A stretch of 64,000 nucleotides of DNA from Candidatus Altimarinota bacterium (GTDB lineage: Bacteria; Patescibacteriota; Gracilibacteria; UBA1369). Positions 6,030 to 51,470 of the stretch are shown here, in pieces. The notes under the pieces are model-generated. The model worked only from the letters and a program-made list of their open reading frames with translations. It did not search any database and was not told the DNA's origin. The position numbers and the translations under genes were made by a program. Location: the NCBI GenBank assembly GCA_963677745.1, contig OY782391.1:1056001-1120000 (forward strand), written 5' to 3'. Every line of letters starts with the position of its first letter. Position 1 is the first letter of the stretch.

Positions 6030-6962
6030 ATGGCAAAAGATGATAAAATATTAAGATTTGTAAATAAAAGACCGATGGGGGTATTTAAAAGTGTGTCTAA
6101 AATTCTGATAATTGAAGTCCTGGTATTAATTCCAGGGGCATCCTGTCTGGCCCTGGTAGATTTGGAGATGCCAACGGATGATTCCAATATCGTCCACAGC
6201 GCGCTGGATCAACTCCATAGTGCCGAAGTCAGTACCAGTGTGGAGGAAATGAAAGACGATCTCGATGGAGCGTTGGAAATTTGCACGAGTGGATCTGAAG
6301 AATGTATGACTGTTTCTGGTGATGATTTGGATAATTTTAATAATTCCAATTTGCCGGATACTATATCGATAATTCCTTTGAGAGTGTCGGAGGACTCCGT
6401 GCTATACGAATCGCTTCCCCAACTGTCTGACAGCCCGGCAACGGCTCCGGTAGATCATCTTCAAATGGAGATTTCGGGGACAGGAACAGAGTTTGCATCC
6501 ACTGCCTTTACACCCCCGGTTGATATTCCAAAAATAGAACAGGTCATTGCACCATCCGAACCTGTCAATGCAATTGAACAAAAAGTTACCGTTATTACGA
6601 ATAATCCTGCACAACATTTATCAGAACCAATTGAAACAAAGCTATCTCCGATTTTGGCAGATACTGAAAATCCCACAGTCTCGACAGATGACAGCGAAAC
6701 GGCGACTCCAACCAATCTGCCAAACACGGCGGAGGGCAACCTGTCAGACGGTTCCGCCAACGTTTTATCGTTCAATGAAAACACCAGTAATAATATTCTT
6801 CTTAGCAACAATTTCATGTACTGGGTCTTTTCCGGAATTCTGGCCTATTTTTCCGGAGTTATGATGATAATGCTGCTAGTTTGTCGTAACAACCGTCGGT
6901 CCTTGCAACGCCAAGTTAAAGTCAGAAAAAAGGCTTTTCAATACATAAAAGCAAGGCGTTGA
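6030..6962 (+). CDS. Exported protein with C-terminal membrane anchor
   Basis: N-terminal hydrophobic stretch, S/T/P-rich stalk, C-terminal TM helix followed by a basic tail. Confidence 0.65.
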   Translation: MAKDDKILRFVNKRPMGVFKSVSKILIIEVLVLIPGASCLALVDLEMPTDDSNIVHSALDQLHSAEVSTSVEEMKDDLDGALEICTSGSEECMTVSGDDLDNFNNSNLPDTISIIPLRVSEDSVLYESLPQLSDSPATAPVDHLQMEISGTGTEFASTAFTPPVDIPKIEQVIAPSEPVNAIEQKVTVITNNPAQHLSEPIETKLSPILADTENPTVSTDDSETATPTNLPNTAEGNLSDGSANVLSFNENTSNNILLSNNFMYWVFSGILAYFSGVMMIMLLVCRNNRRSLQRQVKVRKKAFQYIKARR

Positions 6963-6997
6963 AGTGGTAGAAAAGGTCGATTTTAAAATCTCTATAT

Positions 6998-7028
6998 AAA
7001 AAGGCGCGCCGTGCGGCGCGCCTTTTTT
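6998..7028. terminator. Bidirectional intrinsic terminator
   Basis: AAAAAGGCGCGCC-GTGC-GGCGCGCCTTTTTT between convergent genes. Confidence 0.85.
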
Positions 7029-7046
7029 GTTTCTCCGGAAAACGAT

Positions 7047-7868
7047 CTATTCTCTTTTTCTCATTAATAAATAAACCATCTCCGCCACTTCGGCTCTGGT
7101 CACTTGGGTTGCCGGGTAAATCAGCGTGGCGTCACTGTCGATAATCTGCTCGTTCAAACCTGCCTGAACGTATTTCACATACCACTGGTTCAGTTCGATG
7201 TCGGAAATCCCAGCCAATTGTTGCAGTTCCGCTGCACTGACGGTGAGGTCGCTTTTGAATCCGCGTGTGGTAATTTTCAGTGTTTCCACAACGTTGGCGG
7301 GTTTTTCGGCGCGGAACAAACCGTCCGGATAGCCGTGTACGATATCGGCATTCTTGGCGGCTTTAACATGCCTGGCCGACCAGCTTCTGGTATTGGTGTC
7401 AGGGAAAGCTTTCGGTTCGGGAGAGACTGGTACGGGTGCATCTACCGCTCTGACCACCATCGTGGTTACTTCGGCGCGTGTTGCGGCGGCATTCGGATCA
7501 AAATAACAGGGTCTTCTGCCCCCGGCTATTCCTTTATCATAAAGATAATTGATCGCCTCAGCCGACCGGTTGCCTGCAATATCCCTGAAACGGCAATTGT
7601 TGGCCTGGCTGATTAATCCTCCCGGTTCAACCTGGGCATTACCGGAATCCGAGGCACCGCTACCACCTGAACCGCCGCCCTGGATTTCGGTCAGGTAACT
7701 CCCGCTCGACGCCTCTCTCAGGAACGGTAACTTCATGGAGTTAATGGGACGCTCAGCGCCGCTATCCTGTGCGAAAACTCCGACAGGAATCATTACTCCG
7801 ATCAGTACCCCTCCCCAGAAAGCAGATCGGGCCAGAGCGCCTTTTGAAAAAAAGCTTTCTCTAGACAT
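7047..7868 (-). CDS. S-layer homology (SLH) domain protein
   Basis: Signal peptide; three SLH repeats (FRDI..., ATRAE; GYPDGLFR; VTRAE). Confidence 0.88.
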   Translation of the reverse strand: MSRESFFSKGALARSAFWGGVLIGVMIPVGVFAQDSGAERPINSMKLPFLREASSGSYLTEIQGGGSGGSGASDSGNAQVEPGGLISQANNCRFRDIAGNRSAEAINYLYDKGIAGGRRPCYFDPNAAATRAEVTTMVVRAVDAPVPVSPEPKAFPDTNTRSWSARHVKAAKNADIVHGYPDGLFRAEKPANVVETLKITTRGFKSDLTVSAAELQQLAGISDIELNQWYVKYVQAGLNEQIIDSDATLIYPATQVTRAEVAEMVYLLMRKRE

Positions 7869-7931
7869 ATTTGGGAAATAAGGTATAAAAACGGGCTCAA
7901 TATAGCACCATTATTTCCCGATGCCAATTTT

Positions 7932-10900
7932 TTACTTCAGGGATATGTATTTTCTCAGATCATAAATCCTGACCAGAATTGTGGCGGTTTCTGCACGAGT
8001 GATAGGATCAGAAGGGCGGAAATAATCCAGACCGTCACGACCTTTGGAGCCTAGTATCAGATTATTTTCCCTGCCTGCCGACACGTATTCGAAAAACCAG
8101 TCCGCCGGAACCACATCGTGAAAATATGATTTGGCCTGATATCCCTGTTTTTTAAGTTTCTGGATATTAACCAGTATCTTGATGGCCTCGGCTCTGCTGA
8201 TGGATTTCTCAGGATAAAAATTCCCGTCCGGATAGCCGGAAACGATGCCTTTTTTAGTCGCACTGTAGACATAATTCTTGTACCAGTTGTCCGAATTCAA
8301 CGGGACGTCACCATAAGGTTGGATTTGTGCTGACTGACCGGAAAATTCTTCAATTCCCAGACAATTGGCGACCAGAGCCATTTTAAGAAATTCCGCTCTG
8401 TTGATATTCCGGTCGGGCTGAAAAGAATAACTTCCGTCACTGCCTTCATAACCGCTGATTACAAATGTTTGATTTTTGGTCTGCGCCAGAAGTTTGATTA
8501 TATCGGCGGCCTGATGGTTGGAGACATCATTGAACTCATGCAAAGGGGGTGTCTGTGAAAGACAGGAAAGAGAGGGGGGAGTGGTGTCTTCCTGTTCGGG
8601 CGTTGTCAGAAATTGCATGGCGGGAGGCAGGTTGACCGGTGCGAAACCACCGGACGAAGCGCCGCCTGCTACGGGTAAGGAAGGTCCCGCCCCGCCTCCG
8701 CCGACGGGCGCAGCAGACCCTGAAACTACAATATTACCGCTCAAGCCGGTTTTAGCTGCGGCATCGGTGGCAGATAATTTTATAATTTCGGCATTGAGAT
8801 CATAGACAAATATGGAGGCAATTCCGCCAACCAGATTGTAAACATTATTTTGACTGGTGAATCCGGGAGAATCAAAGAAATAAGCATGACCATTACTTTT
8901 TGCCGTGAAAGAACCGGCCATTTTTACCAGATTTCCATACAGATCATTGGAAGTTACTATTTCGGTCCAGCCCACTGCGGTAGTCTGGGGTGTGGTATTG
9001 GTGATTTCATAATGGTCCAAAGGAGCAACGTTTACGATTAAAGGAAGTCCGCCGTTGGGAGTTCCGCCATGCGGCTGGGAGGTGACAGTCTGATCCGTGG
9101 CATGAACAGTGGAGGTTTCTTCCTTGTAGGCCACCAGAGTGGAGGCTGACAGATCGGAGCTTCCGGCCGTAAAATTGACCAGCACCGGATTGCCGAAGGT
9201 GACCGCCTCCACGACCGGATTGTAAATACCAATCGGACTGAGACCGGAGAAGGTAAGATATTTTGAGCCTTCATATCCGCTGACTACATTGCCCTGCAGA
9301 TCATAAGCGGTCACCGTCAGTTCGTTGGTGGTACCGGCAGACATAGCCGGCAAACCGGTGATCACAAAGTAAGAGGTACAATAAGAGAGTTGTCCCAGTG
9401 ACGAACCGGAAGCCACCAGTGAGGCCGAGCCGGCGGTGGAAGCCGTTGAGTTAACCTTGGTTACGGCGGTGACGTCATTTACTTTATTGCCGGGAATGGT
9501 GCGTACAACCGCTGCTGTGACATCATTAACTGTAAGACAGCTGGGATCAAAGATATTACCGGATGCATCCGTCTTGACCACCCAGATATCGCTTTGTTTC
9601 AAACCCGGTGGAATCGGATGCCTGGAGCGGCCGGCAAAGATCATACCTCCGTCCAGAGTGGACTTCATATCATAGAACAGGTTGTTGATATTGTCCCCGA
9701 TAGCTTTGGCCAGATTAACAGTACCCAGAGCGGGGCCGGGACCGGCGTCAATTTGAAGATAAAAGCCGTCATTGTCTCCTATGCCCAAACCTTCGGTATT
9801 ACCTGCCAAATAATAGGAACTTCCGCCGTTCATGACCGTAAAAAACTCATCCGGAAAGGAAGTTGAATCTCCATAATTGAAAATCCAGTCCAGATTGCCG
9901 TTGGCATCGATTTGCATCAAGAGAGCTTCTTCATAGGCACCGGCATTGGCCACCAGATTGCGACCCGCCAGAATATATTTTCCGAGGGCTGTGGAACCGG
10001 TGATACTGTTAAAAATTGAAGACGCTGAAGTGCCCGGACCTTTGATCGGGTCATTGACCAGAATATCATAAGTGTTACTCCAAATCAGGGCACCGGCACT
10101 GTCGATTTTAAAAATCCAGCCCACATATTCGTTGTTGGGGGCAGGCGCAAATGAGTAAGTCCATCCGGCTACAATGAAGGAACCATCAGGGTTCTCATAA
10201 AGGGCATTGACCATTTCCTGGTCAGCGCCGCCGTATCGGTTTTCCCAGACGATATTACCGGAAGCATCAAGTCTCACCAGCCAGGCTTCCGACACGGGAG
10301 CCAATAAGGGGTCAATACTGGCCTGACCGATCAGCATGAGGCCTCCATCAGCCAGAATATGCATTTTCGACACCACTTCGGACGGTCCACCCAGATCAAA
10401 AGATTTTTGCCAAAGTATATTTCCGTTGCCATCCAATTTCATGGCCAGAAAATCATTGGTTCCCGAAGCGTCGGTGGCTCCGCCGACAAAAATTGATCCA
10501 TCGGAGGCTACTTTCAGGCTGTTTAGAGTGACGGAAAAAGAATCTCCATAGGAGGTTTCCCAGATCACCGTACCGTCCTGATCCAGTTTCATCACCGAAA
10601 GATTGGAAGGAATATACCCGCCTACGATAAAATTGCCGTCCGCCGCTACAGCCACAGCATTGGCTGCGTCATGTCCGCTGGAATCAAACAGTTTGCTCCA
10701 GGTTTTGAGATAGCCGGTTACGTTCAAAGCCAGACAATGGCTGGGTTCGCCAGCAATCGGGTTGCAATTGTATTTCCCGTCGGTCAGTGAAAGAGTCGCC
10801 GATTCTACTATTTGGGGGGTCAGAGTGGCCACCAGTGGGTCGGATACTCCGGCAGTGAAGTTTATCGTTTGAGGTGTGCCGATTATTGTCCCTTCCACAG

Positions 10901-15640: not shown

Positions 15641-17515
15641 ATGGACTCATTTGAACTCCGCCGCAAATATCTGGATTTCTTCGTCAGCAAAGGCCATAAG
15701 GAAATTGCTCCAGCCGGTCTGCTGGCCGAAAATGATCCCACATTATTGTTCGTCAATTCCGGTATGTTCCCGCTGGTCCCCTATCTGTTGGGGCAAAAGC
15801 ATCCGGAGGGTACCAGGCTGGTCAATTCGCAAAGGTCTTTCCGCTCCGACGATATCGATGAAATCGGTGATCAGCGCCACACCACTTTTTTTGAAATGCT
15901 GGGCAACTGGAGTCTGGGCGATTATTTCAAGAAAGAACAACTCAGCTGGTGGTATGAGTTTTTGATTGACCAGGTTGGACTGGATCCAAAAAAACTGTAT
16001 CAGTCGGTTTTTGCCGGCAATGACCTGGTGGAAAGGGATGAAGAAAGTATTCAGACGCTGCAGGCCATGTTCAAAAAAAACGGAATTGAAGCCGAAGTCG
16101 GACCTGCCACCACCGGCAAAGGGGAGTTTGGACCAGGAGTGGAAATTGATTTCAGCCGCCAGCGCATTTTTCCTTACATTGACAAAAACTGGTGGAAGAG
16201 AGGGGACGCGGTGGGCGAACTGGGCGGCCCGGATTCGGAAACTTTTTATGATACCGGGGCACCCCATGACACCCGTTTCGGGGAATTCTGTCACATCAAC
16301 TGCGACTGCGGCAGGTTTATTGAAATCGGCAATTCGGTCTTTATGCAGTATAAAAAAACGCCCGACAGCTGGGAGCCGATGGACCAAAAAAATGTGGATT
16401 TCGGTGGCGGCCTGGAGCGCCTGCTGATGGTGGTGGAAAACCAGACCGACATGTTCAAGACCGACCTCTTTCTGCAATACATACAGGCAATCGAGCTAGA
16501 CACCGGCAAGAGTTATGCAGACCATCTGCATGATTTCCGTTTAATCTGCGACCATGTGCGGGCCGCCACCTTTCTGATCTCCGACGGCGGCGTACCATCC
16601 AACAAGGATCAGGGATATTACATCCGCCGTCTGATCCGCCGCGCTCTGGTCAGCGTCAGAAGCCTGGGCGGACAACATTCTCTGGTGGAAAAACTGGCCG
16701 GACAGGTAATCGAAAAAATGTCCCCCGCCTACCCCCATCTGCAGCAAAAAAGCGCCGATATCATGCGGGAGATTTCCGACGAAGTGGAAAAATTTTCCAA
16801 AACCCTGGAGAAAGGCGTCAAATATTTCGAGATGATCAAGCCTCAAAACGGCCTGATTTCCGGGGAGGACGCTTTCAATCTGACCACCACCTACGGCTTT
16901 CCCCTGGAGATAACCACCGAGCTGGCCGGCAAAAAAGGCCTGAAAATTGATCTGGAGGATTATTTCAAACGCATCGAACATCACAAAGATCTGTCCCGCT
17001 CGGGTTCCGAACAGAAATTCAAGAGCGGTCTGATCGACACCACCGCCGAAACCACCCGTTTGCATACCGCCACCCATCTGCTGCATCAGGCCCTGCGGGT
17101 GGTGTTGGGTCCGCATGTTGAGCAGCGCGGCAGCAATATCACCCCGGAACGCCTGCGTTTTGATTTTTCCCACCCGGCCAAAATGACTCCCGAGGAAATT
17201 AAAAAGGTGGAGGATATAGTGAATGAACAGATTGCCCAGGGGCTGGAGGTGCATTGCGTGGAAACAACCCCGGAAGAAGCCAAGAGCAAGGGGGCGATCG
17301 GTCTTTTTAACGACAAATATGCCAGCAACGTCACGGTCTATACAGTCGGGGCGCCGCTGGCGGAAGCCGAACGTGCTTTCTCCAAAGAAATCTGCGCCGG
17401 TCCCCACGTCAAAAACATTTCCGAATTGGGCGGATTCAAGATCACCAAAGAAGAGGCTAGTTCCTCCGGTATCCGCAGAATCAAGGCGGTGATAACCGCC
17501 AATTCGCAAAAATAG
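15641..17515 (+). CDS. alaS: Alanine--tRNA ligase (short form without C-Ala domain)
   Basis: DPTLLFVNSGM, HTTFFEMLGNWSLGDYFK, EIGNSVFMQY, DFGGGLER; editing motifs HTATHLL and ICAGPHV; ends just after GIRRIKA. Confidence 0.96.
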   Translation: MDSFELRRKYLDFFVSKGHKEIAPAGLLAENDPTLLFVNSGMFPLVPYLLGQKHPEGTRLVNSQRSFRSDDIDEIGDQRHTTFFEMLGNWSLGDYFKKEQLSWWYEFLIDQVGLDPKKLYQSVFAGNDLVERDEESIQTLQAMFKKNGIEAEVGPATTGKGEFGPGVEIDFSRQRIFPYIDKNWWKRGDAVGELGGPDSETFYDTGAPHDTRFGEFCHINCDCGRFIEIGNSVFMQYKKTPDSWEPMDQKNVDFGGGLERLLMVVENQTDMFKTDLFLQYIQAIELDTGKSYADHLHDFRLICDHVRAATFLISDGGVPSNKDQGYYIRRLIRRALVSVRSLGGQHSLVEKLAGQVIEKMSPAYPHLQQKSADIMREISDEVEKFSKTLEKGVKYFEMIKPQNGLISGEDAFNLTTTYGFPLEITTELAGKKGLKIDLEDYFKRIEHHKDLSRSGSEQKFKSGLIDTTAETTRLHTATHLLHQALRVVLGPHVEQRGSNITPERLRFDFSHPAKMTPEEIKKVEDIVNEQIAQGLEVHCVETTPEEAKSKGAIGLFNDKYASNVTVYTVGAPLAEAERAFSKEICAGPHVKNISELGGFKITKEEASSSGIRRIKAVITANSQK

Positions 17516-50860: not shown

Positions 50861-50931
50861 TGGTGGAACCGCGGGGAGTCGAACCCCGATTCAACAATTG
50901 TCAAAACCGTGAATGGACCACTCCCGGTCCC
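50861..50931 (-). ncRNA. Minimal tRNA/tmRNA-like RNA with G3:U70 alanine identity
   Basis: GGGACCG/CGGTTCC acceptor stem followed by ACCA, T arm CGGGG-TTCGACT-CCCCG, internal ACGGTTTTGAC; no canonical D or anticodon arm. Confidence 0.7.
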
Positions 50932-51067
50932 ACGCGCTATTGGCGATTTATATAATATTTATTGGCCATTAACTAACCATAAATAAAAGTTAAAATATTC
51001 CTGAGATATTTGAAATAAACAGAAAATTTGGTATATTAACTATGTCAAAACTGTGAATGACCTTCCC

Positions 51068-51096
51068 AAAAGAGCCCGCGCATGCGCGGGCTCTTT
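51068..51096. terminator. Strong hairpin/terminator downstream of the tRNA-Gly element
   Basis: AAAGAGCCCGCG-CATG-CGCGGGCTCTTT. Confidence 0.7.
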
Positions 51097-51118
51097 GTTT
51101 GCTGTTATAAAATCTTGA

Positions 51119-51262
51119 AGCGGGTTAGGGGAATAAACTGCGCTGCGCTCGTTTCGCGGACTGCATTCGCTCGCATCTGAAAATAAATTTTCAATGACTC
51201 GCTTCATATGTCTGCACGAACCCACGCCCGCTTCGCGGGATCGGGTTCTCTTCCCCTTGCCC
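51119..51262 (-). repeat. tRNA-Gly 3'-end duplication bounding a structured mini-element
   Basis: AGCGGGTTAGGGGAAT at 51119-51134 is identical to 51311-51326; nested hairpins lie between the copies. Confidence 0.7.
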
Positions 51263-51307
51263 AGGCACAAATAAAAATATCACGCTCAAAAGAGCCCGAT
51301 ATTTTTA

Positions 51308-51381
51308 TGGAGCGGGTTAGGGGAATCGAACCCCTGTCTTCAGCTTGGAAAGCTGTCATAATACCATTATACTAAACCCGC
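51308..51381 (-). tRNA. tRNA-Gly (TCC)
   Basis: Acceptor GCGGGTT/AACCCGC, anticodon loop TTTCCAA, T loop TTCGATT, encoded CCA. Confidence 0.95.
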
Positions 51382-51470
51382 CTGATTGTACTGATTGGAA
51401 AACAAAAACTTCGATCCGTGAAAATTTTCTTTGCCAGCTGATTCTAGCCAAAAAGCCGGCAGCTTTCAAC

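Follow-up and report, generated by a model that had tools for sequence, protein, structure and literature searches.

The window analyzed here, a 64,000-nucleotide stretch (positions 1056001-1120000) of the 1,335,835 bp, single-contig genome (47% G+C) of a Candidatus Altimarinota bacterium, contains what its sequence and conservation indicate to be a functional gene for a tRNA-shaped RNA of about 71 nt, which we term E. This RNA is predicted to fold as a compact cloverleaf with the acceptor-end marks for alanine, and a second gene beside it is predicted to code for a short RNA, anti-E, that is complementary to it. Comparable pairs recur as a multi-copy family in ultra-small bacteria from the candidate phyla radiation (CPR). 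Our favored reading, held with only slightly better than even confidence, is that of a two-RNA module made up of an alanylatable tRNA mimic and its own antisense RNA. Within it, a toxin-antitoxin logic is a tentative proposal, any toxicity being purely conjectural.

A sequence-only reading of this DNA had singled out E beforehand, and its overall interpretation is partly supported by our analysis. It had missed the multi-copy nature of the family, the pairing of the sequences that flank the mimic and the cognate antisense gene beside the copies; the last of these changes the most likely nature of E.

Fold, alanine marks and family of the tRNA mimic

The E gene and its immediate flanks comprise the following elements:

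50861-50931, minus strand: the tRNA-like RNA E, 71 nt, recognized by ARAGORN, Rfam model scores and covariation
50932-50943, minus strand: 5' leader, consisting of the stem strand CCAATAG (50943-50937) and a 5-nt linker, the last two bases of which can pair with A73 and C74
50847-50860, minus strand: 3' trailer, consisting of the stem strand CTGTTGG (50860-50854) and then a T-rich run (50853-50847), from the sequence and its homologues
50952-50957, minus strand: the -10-like box TATTAT of a putative E promoter, read from the sequence 8 nt before the leader stem

The letters at 50861-50931 are those quoted in the sequence-only reading, and the acceptor stem with G3:U70, the A73, the T arm and the encoded CCA that it described are confirmed. 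The acceptor stem is of 7 bp with G1:C72, G2:C71 and G3:U70, the D stem of 3 bp with a 4-nt loop, and the "anticodon" stem of 5+4 bp with one bulged base and a 7-nt loop (YTTGACA), while the T arm reads CGGGG/TTCGACT/CCCCG. ARAGORN calls a gene with exactly these ends as a "tRNA-Ser(tga)", with the anticodon at position 29. The 36-nt middle had been described as forming no normal D arm plus anticodon arm; it folds instead as the 3-bp D stem and the 5+4-bp stem, with support from covariation, and the 10-bp hairpin seen there earlier is essentially the long "anticodon" stem. The likeness of ACGGTTTTGAC to the tmRNA (transfer-messenger RNA) D-loop motif turns out to be a matter of chance, for this segment is the 5' strand of a variable stem and differs in every homologue save in the loop.

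The whole family follows one plan. From 5' to 3', a 7-bp acceptor stem leads at once into a 3-bp D stem, the 4-nt loop of which keeps GG; next come a 5-bp stem, a single bulge on the 3' side and four further pairs, capped by a 7-8-nt loop that conforms to Y-U-Y-G-N-C-A; and last the T arm, usually GGGG, TTCGAYT and CCCC, followed by the 3' strand of the acceptor, A73 and, in most copies, CCA. Bases 8, 9 and 26 and the variable loop are absent, with the helices joined directly to each other. The loop triplet is UGA in E, and UGC, UGU, CGU, UGG or UAC in other copies. Since these triplets vary and the helix on the anticodon side exceeds that of a tRNA by about four pairs, the mimic would be unable to decode.

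For searches we used a covariance model (CM R1) built from eight chosen seed sequences with a structure specified by hand; E, a seed of that model, scores 91.2 bits on it. Across 36 genomes of the same taxonomic family, it recovered about 50 copies of 69-75 nt with 45-94 bits, compared to at most 44.4 bits for ordinary 76-77-nt tRNAs, such that the scores are bimodal. A short high-scoring copy is present in 19 of these 36 genomes, with one to seven copies per carrier (seven in one of them, G004). The genome studied here has four paralogues: E, two 72-nt copies at 320712 and 321832, which surfaced in a tmRNA-model scan of the genome, and a fourth at 300202-300272. The close homologues of E within the genus are one copy in genome G001 and three full copies along with one hybrid in genome G002.

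Overall, the spread of the module in the CPR is patchy. The matches listed include copies that fit the model at 50-77 bits in Saccharibacteria, Gracilibacteria, Uhrbacteria and other Patescibacteria. A scan of public genomes with a pattern that imposes GGG...TCCACCA yielded at least 80 loci, 77 of which were searched with the model. When 150 other genomes, sampled evenly across the phylum, were searched, 4 had a match at an E-value <=1e-8, as judged by a model that is biased toward its Peregrinibacteria seeds. Viral contigs gave 45 pattern stretches and 35 model matches, all below 50 bits save one (L223, 58 bits); most are of 74-75 nt, which by length alone is that of an ordinary tRNA-Ala, and no link of the family to phages was found in these contigs.

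The sequence-only reading had proposed looking for homologues and covariation, and the family so recovered covaries in all its helices. An alignment of 47 copies obtained with MAFFT and folded with RNAalifold, independently of the CM, produced the same cloverleaf, with double changes in 20 of the 23 predicted pairs. In the CM-fitted alignment, which leans toward the model, 95.9% of the cells form pairs against 68.2% after shuffling, and the covariation score is 0.743 against 0.197, a value reached by none of 500 shuffles; sliding the partners by 1-3 columns brings the pairing down to 41-60%. Homologues of E show compensatory changes both within the genus and across the taxonomic family.

The acceptor end behaves differently from the rest of its helix. 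Pairs 1:72 and 2:71 are G-C in all 50 alignment rows, and 3:70 is G-U in 48, the two A-U rows being an aberrant copy (L070) and a true tRNA included in the alignment. Pairs 4-7 covary freely while G3:U70 stays; thus, pair 4:69 is GC in 22 rows, CG in 12, AU in 11, GU in four and UA in one. The tail ACCA is found in 38 of 49 distinct copies. Because G3:U70 and ACCA persist to this extent while pairs 4-7 vary, the alanine set is, on this comparative evidence, under selection; the earlier description of E as a tRNA-like-domain-only RNA with an alanine acceptor end is upheld. Together with A73 and G2:C71, G3:U70 makes up the established set of identity elements for alanyl-tRNA synthetase (AlaRS), and this set reportedly suffices even in minihelices. 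Carrying these determinants, the mimic would be alanylatable.

The flanks of the mimic are also conserved and are predicted to cage the 3' end of its precursor by pairing of leader and trailer. The leader/trailer stem of E is kept, with one-sided changes, in all five close homologues. When the 13 nt before position -3 were paired with the 14 nt after the tail, duplexes of <= -8 kcal/mol were obtained for 42 of 48 family loci and for 22 of 48 non-cognate combinations, a weak control as most copies have a common GCTGG/CCAGC core. The T-rich run at 50853-50847 is probably the 3' end of the E primary transcript, and in most family copies a -10-like box precedes the leader by about 7-8 nt.

The predicted antisense partner gene

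Divergently from E, the window contains a predicted gene with the following parts:

51010-51037, plus strand: promoter of anti-E, TTGAAA and TATATT with a 16-nt spacer and a TG ahead of the -10 (10 of 12 matches in the promoter scan)
51044-51067, plus strand: antisense segment of anti-E, complementary to E positions ~7-33 (D arm, 5' strand of the long stem and loop)
51069-51106, plus strand: intrinsic terminator of anti-E, a 12-bp stem (51069-51096) and T-rich tail, from the promoter/terminator scan and as an inverted repeat

Promoter and terminator bracket an RNA of ~63 nt (about 51044-51106, plus strand), the start of which is placed by the promoter and the first 24 nt of which are antisense to E. 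With T runs on either strand, the terminator can also stop the tRNA-Gly transcript that approaches from the opposite side. In the DNA, the complementarity takes the form of a repeat (D2), with 51043-51059 copying 50899-50915 on the same strand; hence a plus-strand RNA from this place would be antisense to E.

The complementarity is specific. E and anti-E score 49, against a mean of 26.9 (sd 3.9, 99th percentile 37.6) for a null of 280 non-cognate comparisons, and their duplex is computed at -40.4 kcal/mol, against -18.6 +/- 3.5 for 200 shuffles. When the four mimics of this genome were combined with the four predicted partners in a 4 x 4 matrix, the cognate duplexes came to -40.4 to -43.0 kcal/mol and the non-cognate ones to -12.8 to -28.0; in the four cognate pairs, the dimer is favored by 14-19.5 kcal/mol over the separate folds. 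By these calculations the four mimics and their partners form an orthogonal set. A BLAST search of the four antisense heads against the genome returned no further extended target, only short matches at chance level.

The same relationship is seen in the homologues. All five close homologues of E have a divergent antisense segment that changes in step with the stem of the mimic, G-U wobbles included. In each of them TG-n-TATAAT is present, a -35-like TTGAnA is kept in the four that are aligned over this part (the copy from G001 being unaligned), and the terminator is kept in all five, with a compensatory stem change in G001. More broadly, a neighboring cognate antisense above the 99th percentile of controls was detected in 41 of 50 family loci, these being the first 50 after deduplication (48 of the family set along with L143 and L118). 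One of the nine loci under this threshold, L052, is a contig-end duplicate whose twin, L053, has a partner. In three others (L032, L033 and L071), the downstream neighbor RNA is, by eye, antisense to the T-stem and the acceptor 3' strand with its CCA; this would be a second way of blocking the same RNA, and fits blocking of the mimic as the common purpose.

The partners come in three arrangements. In the tandem one (23 loci), a promoter of the form TTGnnT, 17-18 nt, TATAAT/TATACT lies at a fixed place in 16 loci, with its -35 hexamer supplied by the acceptor 3' strand of the mimic itself; the antisense promoter is nearer to consensus than that of the mimic in 15 of the 23 and equal to it in five, and the antisense in this subtype also reaches acceptor pairs 5-7. 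The divergent one comprises 17 loci, including E. Convergent copies, which belong to other CPR lineages, have a common A-tract/hairpin/T-tract terminator, and full TTGACA/TATAAT promoters are seen in Saccharibacteria copies. In the inspected copies of all three arrangements, the strand set by promoter or terminator is the antisense strand. The statements on promoters, bidirectional terminators and 3'-end-directed partners were in part read by eye from the flanking sequences rather than scored. That the antisense strand is fixed in this way, and that the complementarity admits G-U wobbles, favors RNA-RNA pairing over a mere DNA repeat. One DNA sequencing run contains a relative's copy of E together with its partner.

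Look-alikes outside the CPR (in Dehalococcoidia, Planctomycetota, Xanthobacteraceae, Taklimakanibacter and Vicinamibacterales), with 42-57 bits, were not counted as members; none of them has an antisense above the null. A separate curiosity are the 73-nt alanine-identity mimics of Taklimakanibacter lacteus (L099:4066-4138), a Xanthobacteraceae metagenome-assembled genome (L156:6779-6851) and L136:164-235, which have a tRNA-Ala-like loop (CUUGCAA) and lack an antisense partner. They are situated within arrays of odd tRNA-like genes, the upstream gene ending in GGCACCA and the downstream one featuring a GUU loop and a long extra arm.

Such a pair could operate as follows. E would be transcribed as a precursor of ~100 nt, in which leader and trailer pair mutually and partly with the ACC, keeping the CCA caged until RNase P and 3' trimming release G1 and the CCA. 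AlaRS would then charge the mimic via G1:C72, G2:C71, G3:U70 and A73, yielding an RNA that would be non-decoding, with an anticodon-side helix ~4 bp too long and without the 8/9/26 and variable-loop linkers. The pair would behave as a matched RNA-RNA switch, for which a toxin-antitoxin-like logic is the likeliest. In it, the stable charged mimic would limit growth, whether by depleting AlaRS or EF-Tu or by getting into stalled ribosomes along with SmpB, while the antisense RNA would specifically neutralize it. The latter may dock on the U-turn-like loop, in the manner reportedly conceived for YUNR loops, and zip through the stem and D arm, unfolding the mimic; RNase III may then cleave the mimic/antisense duplex.

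Known RNAs and competing readings

In a search of Rfam 15 at gathering thresholds, the window's three ordinary tRNAs are reported, but E attains the cutoff of no family. The best permissive match of E is the mascRNA-menRNA family (RF01684; 41.9 bits, E-value 2.2e-07), and membership was rejected as it falls 0.6 bits short of the gathering score of 42.5. The tmRNA model (RF00023, gathering score 47) gives E 29.7 bits (E-value 1.8e-10) in a whole-genome scan and 22.5 bits, truncated, in a local scan; two other copies, scanned at E-values <=0.01, returned nothing but tmRNA below threshold. Identity as a tmRNA was rejected in view of this score, the contiguous 71 nt and the want of a tag peptide from ARAGORN, and as a tRNA-Ala or tRNA-Ser in view of a score below the RF00005 gathering score (29 bits), the 9-bp stem with its bulge and the missing linkers. 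Permuted two-piece tmRNA, which the sequence-only reading had already dismissed, is likewise out: the acceptor strands are in normal order and RF04321 gives 11.3 bits against a gathering score of 47. YrlA and other bacterial Y RNAs, which are defined by a Ro protein usually encoded beside the RNA, were rejected too, with no match to PF05731 (TROVE) in this 97.9%-complete genome, in a search that did find the domain in D. radiodurans and B. thetaiotaomicron. Y RNA families did not appear in the Rfam scans at an E-value <=10 for the E region or <=0.01 for the two other copies.

These comparisons nevertheless point to what E resembles in part. It shares with the tRNA-like domain of tmRNA the GGG start, the alanine identity (G3:U70, A73 and CCA) and a GGGG/TTCGA-type T arm, and the RF00023 model aligns both of its ends. 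In contrast to tmRNA, E is contiguous, forms a genuine D stem of 3 bp and, at the point where helix 2 would exit, a closed hairpin, and is without pseudoknots, resume codon or tag frame; the label "mini-tmRNA" given to it earlier therefore does not suit it, for it has a true D stem, a closed anticodon-like hairpin and a score below that required for tmRNA. With tRNA-Ala it has in common the full acceptor-end AlaRS set, the T loop and the D-loop GG, but not bases 8, 9 and 26 or the variable loop, and its D stem of 3 bp and bulged 9-bp anticodon-side stem set it apart; further, its loop triplet, UGA, is at odds with the alanine-type acceptor marks. The mascRNA/MEN-beta RNAs of vertebrates, which are 3'-end products of eukaryotic long noncoding RNAs and are not known to be aminoacylated, have the same linker-free helix plan but neither alanine marks nor an antisense partner, and we take the likeness as convergent. 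The YrlA Y RNAs are reportedly tRNA mimics in which the acceptor helix runs into a helix of the 5' and 3' ends and the anticodon-like stem is kinked. The acceptor helix of E is likewise extended by paired ends, whereas the E family keeps CCA and G3:U70, has an antisense partner in place of a protein partner gene and is accompanied by no Ro/Rsr gene.

The closest organizational parallels are RNA-RNA toxin-antitoxin pairs of type VIII and paralogous antisense pairs of type I, such as SdsR/RyeA, CreT/CreA and Ibs/Sib. As in those, two RNA genes with specific complementarity are adjacent, each paralogue has its private partner, the distribution is multicopy and patchy, and the antisense promoter is the stronger one. 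The differences are that the target here is a tRNA mimic, neither an mRNA nor a known small-RNA toxin, and that this case is known from sequence. In the full-text literature, with most subscription journals outside it, we found no description of a tRNA mimic from bacteria that combines alanine identity with an antisense partner, of a tRNA-like RNA in CPR phyla or of an RNA-RNA toxin-antitoxin pair with a tRNA-like member. Passages from a 2025 paper on a tmRNA database (PMC11915505) make no mention of such genes. Thus, the module is apparently of a new kind and its family apparently undescribed.

Several observations weigh against a charged mimic that is held in check by its antisense RNA. Positions -1 to -3 pair with 73-75 (all three pairs in 23 of 49 copies, two in 20), and of the 11 copies in 49 that lack the CCA most still have the leader pairing via other letters; consequently, the mature RNA might stay closed-ended and never be charged. 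A strict promoter scan found no sigma-70 site for E on the minus strand, only the -10-like box, so that of the AT-rich upstream box noted earlier TATTAT (50957-50952) stands but does not amount to a called promoter. The cloverleaf of E lies 2.8 kcal/mol above its single-sequence minimum free energy (MFE) structure, which is a different fold; such misses are common for tRNA-like folds, as tertiary contacts go unscored. No terminator separates mimic and antisense in the tandem copies, where a read-through transcript toggling between two folds is possible. The RNA-labelled sequencing runs sharing words with the region (n=3) cover only the conserved tRNA-Gly (51305-51384). Finally, all eight CM seeds carry G3:U70, and related genomes are non-independent samples.

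The main rival, which we regard as unlikely, takes the closed end at face value: an uncharged mimic would keep its leader/trailer helix, like the closed end of YrlA, and, under regulation by the antisense, act as a decoy or a scaffold for factors that bind acceptor arms (AlaRS, RNase P, EF-Tu, anticodon or acceptor nucleases). Most copies do form a continuous helix from the leader/trailer stem through pairs -1..-3:73-75 into the acceptor stem, copies without CCA retain this pairing by covariation (e.g., ATAT with ATAT), and the bulged anticodon-like stem is as reported for YrlA. However, ACCA is kept in 38 of 49 copies though pairing alone would allow it to drift, neither a Ro/TROVE gene in the genome nor a Y RNA match in Rfam was found, and the invariant G3:U70 is specifically the determinant for charging by AlaRS. 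The non-decoding look of the mimic also suits a role outside the ribosome, donating alanine to FemX-type transferases for peptidoglycan bridges in the manner of the non-proteinogenic tRNA-Gly of staphylococci, with the antisense tuning the supply. This genome has two FemAB genes, one copy of the mimic (L022) directly follows such a gene and another lies within ~2 kb of one; yet 35 of the 36 genomes in the taxonomic family encode FemAB against 19 with the mimic, the two are close in only 2 of ~50 loci, and none of the 36 has an aminoacyl-phosphatidylglycerol synthase domain. Further, a housekeeping role would leave up to seven paralogues with hypervariable stems and private antisense RNAs unexplained, and we rate this proposal as quite unlikely.

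Below it we would place the view that the effector is the partner, for which the mimic would be a sponge or processing scaffold, or that the tandem unit is a single transcript toggling between cloverleaf and long hairpin as a cis switch. The MFE of tandem units is indeed a long hairpin, and a terminator between mimic and antisense is absent there, but the antisense sequences have no common seed and no other target in the genome, divergent and convergent copies, E included, cannot be single transcripts, and the promoter that 16 of 23 tandem copies have at a constant position and the complete promoters seen in Saccharibacteria copies speak against it; this makes it improbable. Tag-less ribosome rescue, whereby the alanine mimic with SmpB and EF-Tu would accept the nascent chain on stalled ribosomes, draws on the tmRNA-like acceptor end and T arm (~30 bits on RF00023 in three copies) and on the encoded SmpB. 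It ranks lower still, as the genome has a full ssrA, the mimic forms a genuine D stem at the site of the unpaired D-loop analogue of tmRNA, a ribosome without a resume codon would remain blocked, and neither the antisense partners nor the patchy spread is explained. Most improbable by far, and already contradicted by covariation in every helix, is that E is a relic, i.e., a decayed tRNA or tmRNA fragment or the att scar of a mobile element, with the "antisense" as a leftover DNA repeat. A repeat of the tRNA-Gly 3' end about 190 bp away, one hybrid copy (L018 in G002) and Xer-like integrases at 4 of 91 neighbor positions might suggest this. Against it, the 3' half of E is not the att copy of ssrA or tRNA-Ala that the sequence-only reading had entertained, differing from the 3' ends of these genes; there is no integrase near E, the repeat spans the 5' half whereas island scars take the 3' end, a conserved promoter and terminator bracket the antisense segment, and the complementarity tolerates G-U pairs.

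Genomic surroundings and possible significance

The machinery invoked above is encoded in this genome, including smpB, RNase III and the RNase P RNA. The full ssrA that the sequence-only reading had suggested seeking alongside smpB is at 701797-702237 of the genome (minus strand, 105.7 bits); at 441 nt it is long, and the tag that ARAGORN assigns to it, EANNLATVFAPRTFALANVA, is unusual. AlaRS lies at 15653-17020 of the window (plus strand), next to the position of 15641 given earlier; its frame is of only 656 aa and matches positions 1-436 of a 552-position catalytic-domain model, so it may be a shortened AlaRS. ARAGORN finds 46 tRNA genes besides E, among them a tRNA-Ser(tga) and three tRNA-Ala. 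Only two tRNAs with a CAT anticodon are called in this complete genome (genome 21874-22068); bacteria usually need three, namely the initiator, the elongator Met and the lysidine-Ile tRNAs.

No conserved protein neighbor emerged from Pfam, clustering and annotation of the 91 nearest open reading frames (ORFs) of 50 loci. Pfam recognizes Phage_integrase in four of them, RF-1/PCRF in three, NERD in two and FemAB in one; the integrases are Xer-like orthologues of a single clade, and the recurrence of these families reflects local synteny. The two FemAB associations are those of L022:1638-2666 (G015), where the gene ends 67 nt before the mimic, and of G045:C34 at about 6470-9278, where it is ~1.7 kb away; together they are slightly above chance, and FemAB is found in carriers and non-carriers of the mimic alike. 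Next to the anti-E gene, the tRNA-Gly(tcc) gene (51308-51381, minus strand) is matched 192 bp downstream, at 51116-51134, by a 19-nt repeat of its 3' end (D1, 95% identical), and a 12-nt repeat (D4) of the sequence that follows it is found at 51067-51078 and 51287-51298. These repeats look like the scar of a small insertion or decayed island beside the antisense-gene terminator.

Elsewhere in this genome, at 320712-321903 (L003:1501-2692), two tandem mimic+antisense modules with diverged stems surround an ORF for a 245-aa NERD-domain protein; the two copies flanking the NERD ORF in G002 (L050:3001-4131) are identical, and the duplication there is therefore recent. Also in G002 (C1, ~165.5 kb), the hybrid copy L018:1509-1572 (minus strand, 37.1 bits) joins a terminator and an antisense-gene-like 5' part, at the common loop, to the 3' half of a mimic, as though a mimic gene had recombined with a partner gene; within 6 kb of it there are three further copies. 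In L061:973-4660 and L071:1218-4805, the mimic sits between two paralogous ORFs of ~550-580 aa without a Pfam match, and the five ORFs of this type form one BLAST cluster.

Returning to the two-RNA module, the matched hypervariable stems of the paralogues, the patchy spread, the lack of a protein partner and an antisense promoter that is nearer to consensus than that of the mimic together suggest a toxin-antitoxin- or defense-like unit with the charged mimic as its active part. In a speculative version of this proposal, the module would be a selfish or defensive one that has multiplied and diversified in the CPR, with the charged mimic as toxin, which would jam stalled ribosomes together with SmpB or deplete AlaRS and EF-Tu, and the private antisense RNA as antitoxin. 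Should transcription falter, e.g., because a phage attacks or the locus is lost, the short-lived antisense would be degraded, leaving the stable mimic to shut down translation.

If this is correct, E would be the first tRNA mimic known to be under the control of a dedicated antisense partner, and the paralogues would constitute a natural set of orthogonal RNA-RNA pairs. The family would also permit a direct test of the cellular role of an RNA that is aminoacylated but does not decode, be it as toxin, amino-acid donor or rescue factor, and the entire module, at ~250 bp, is compact enough for tests in a laboratory host. As ARAGORN labels such genes as tRNA-Ser and the like, the tRNA counts of CPR genomes may be inflated.

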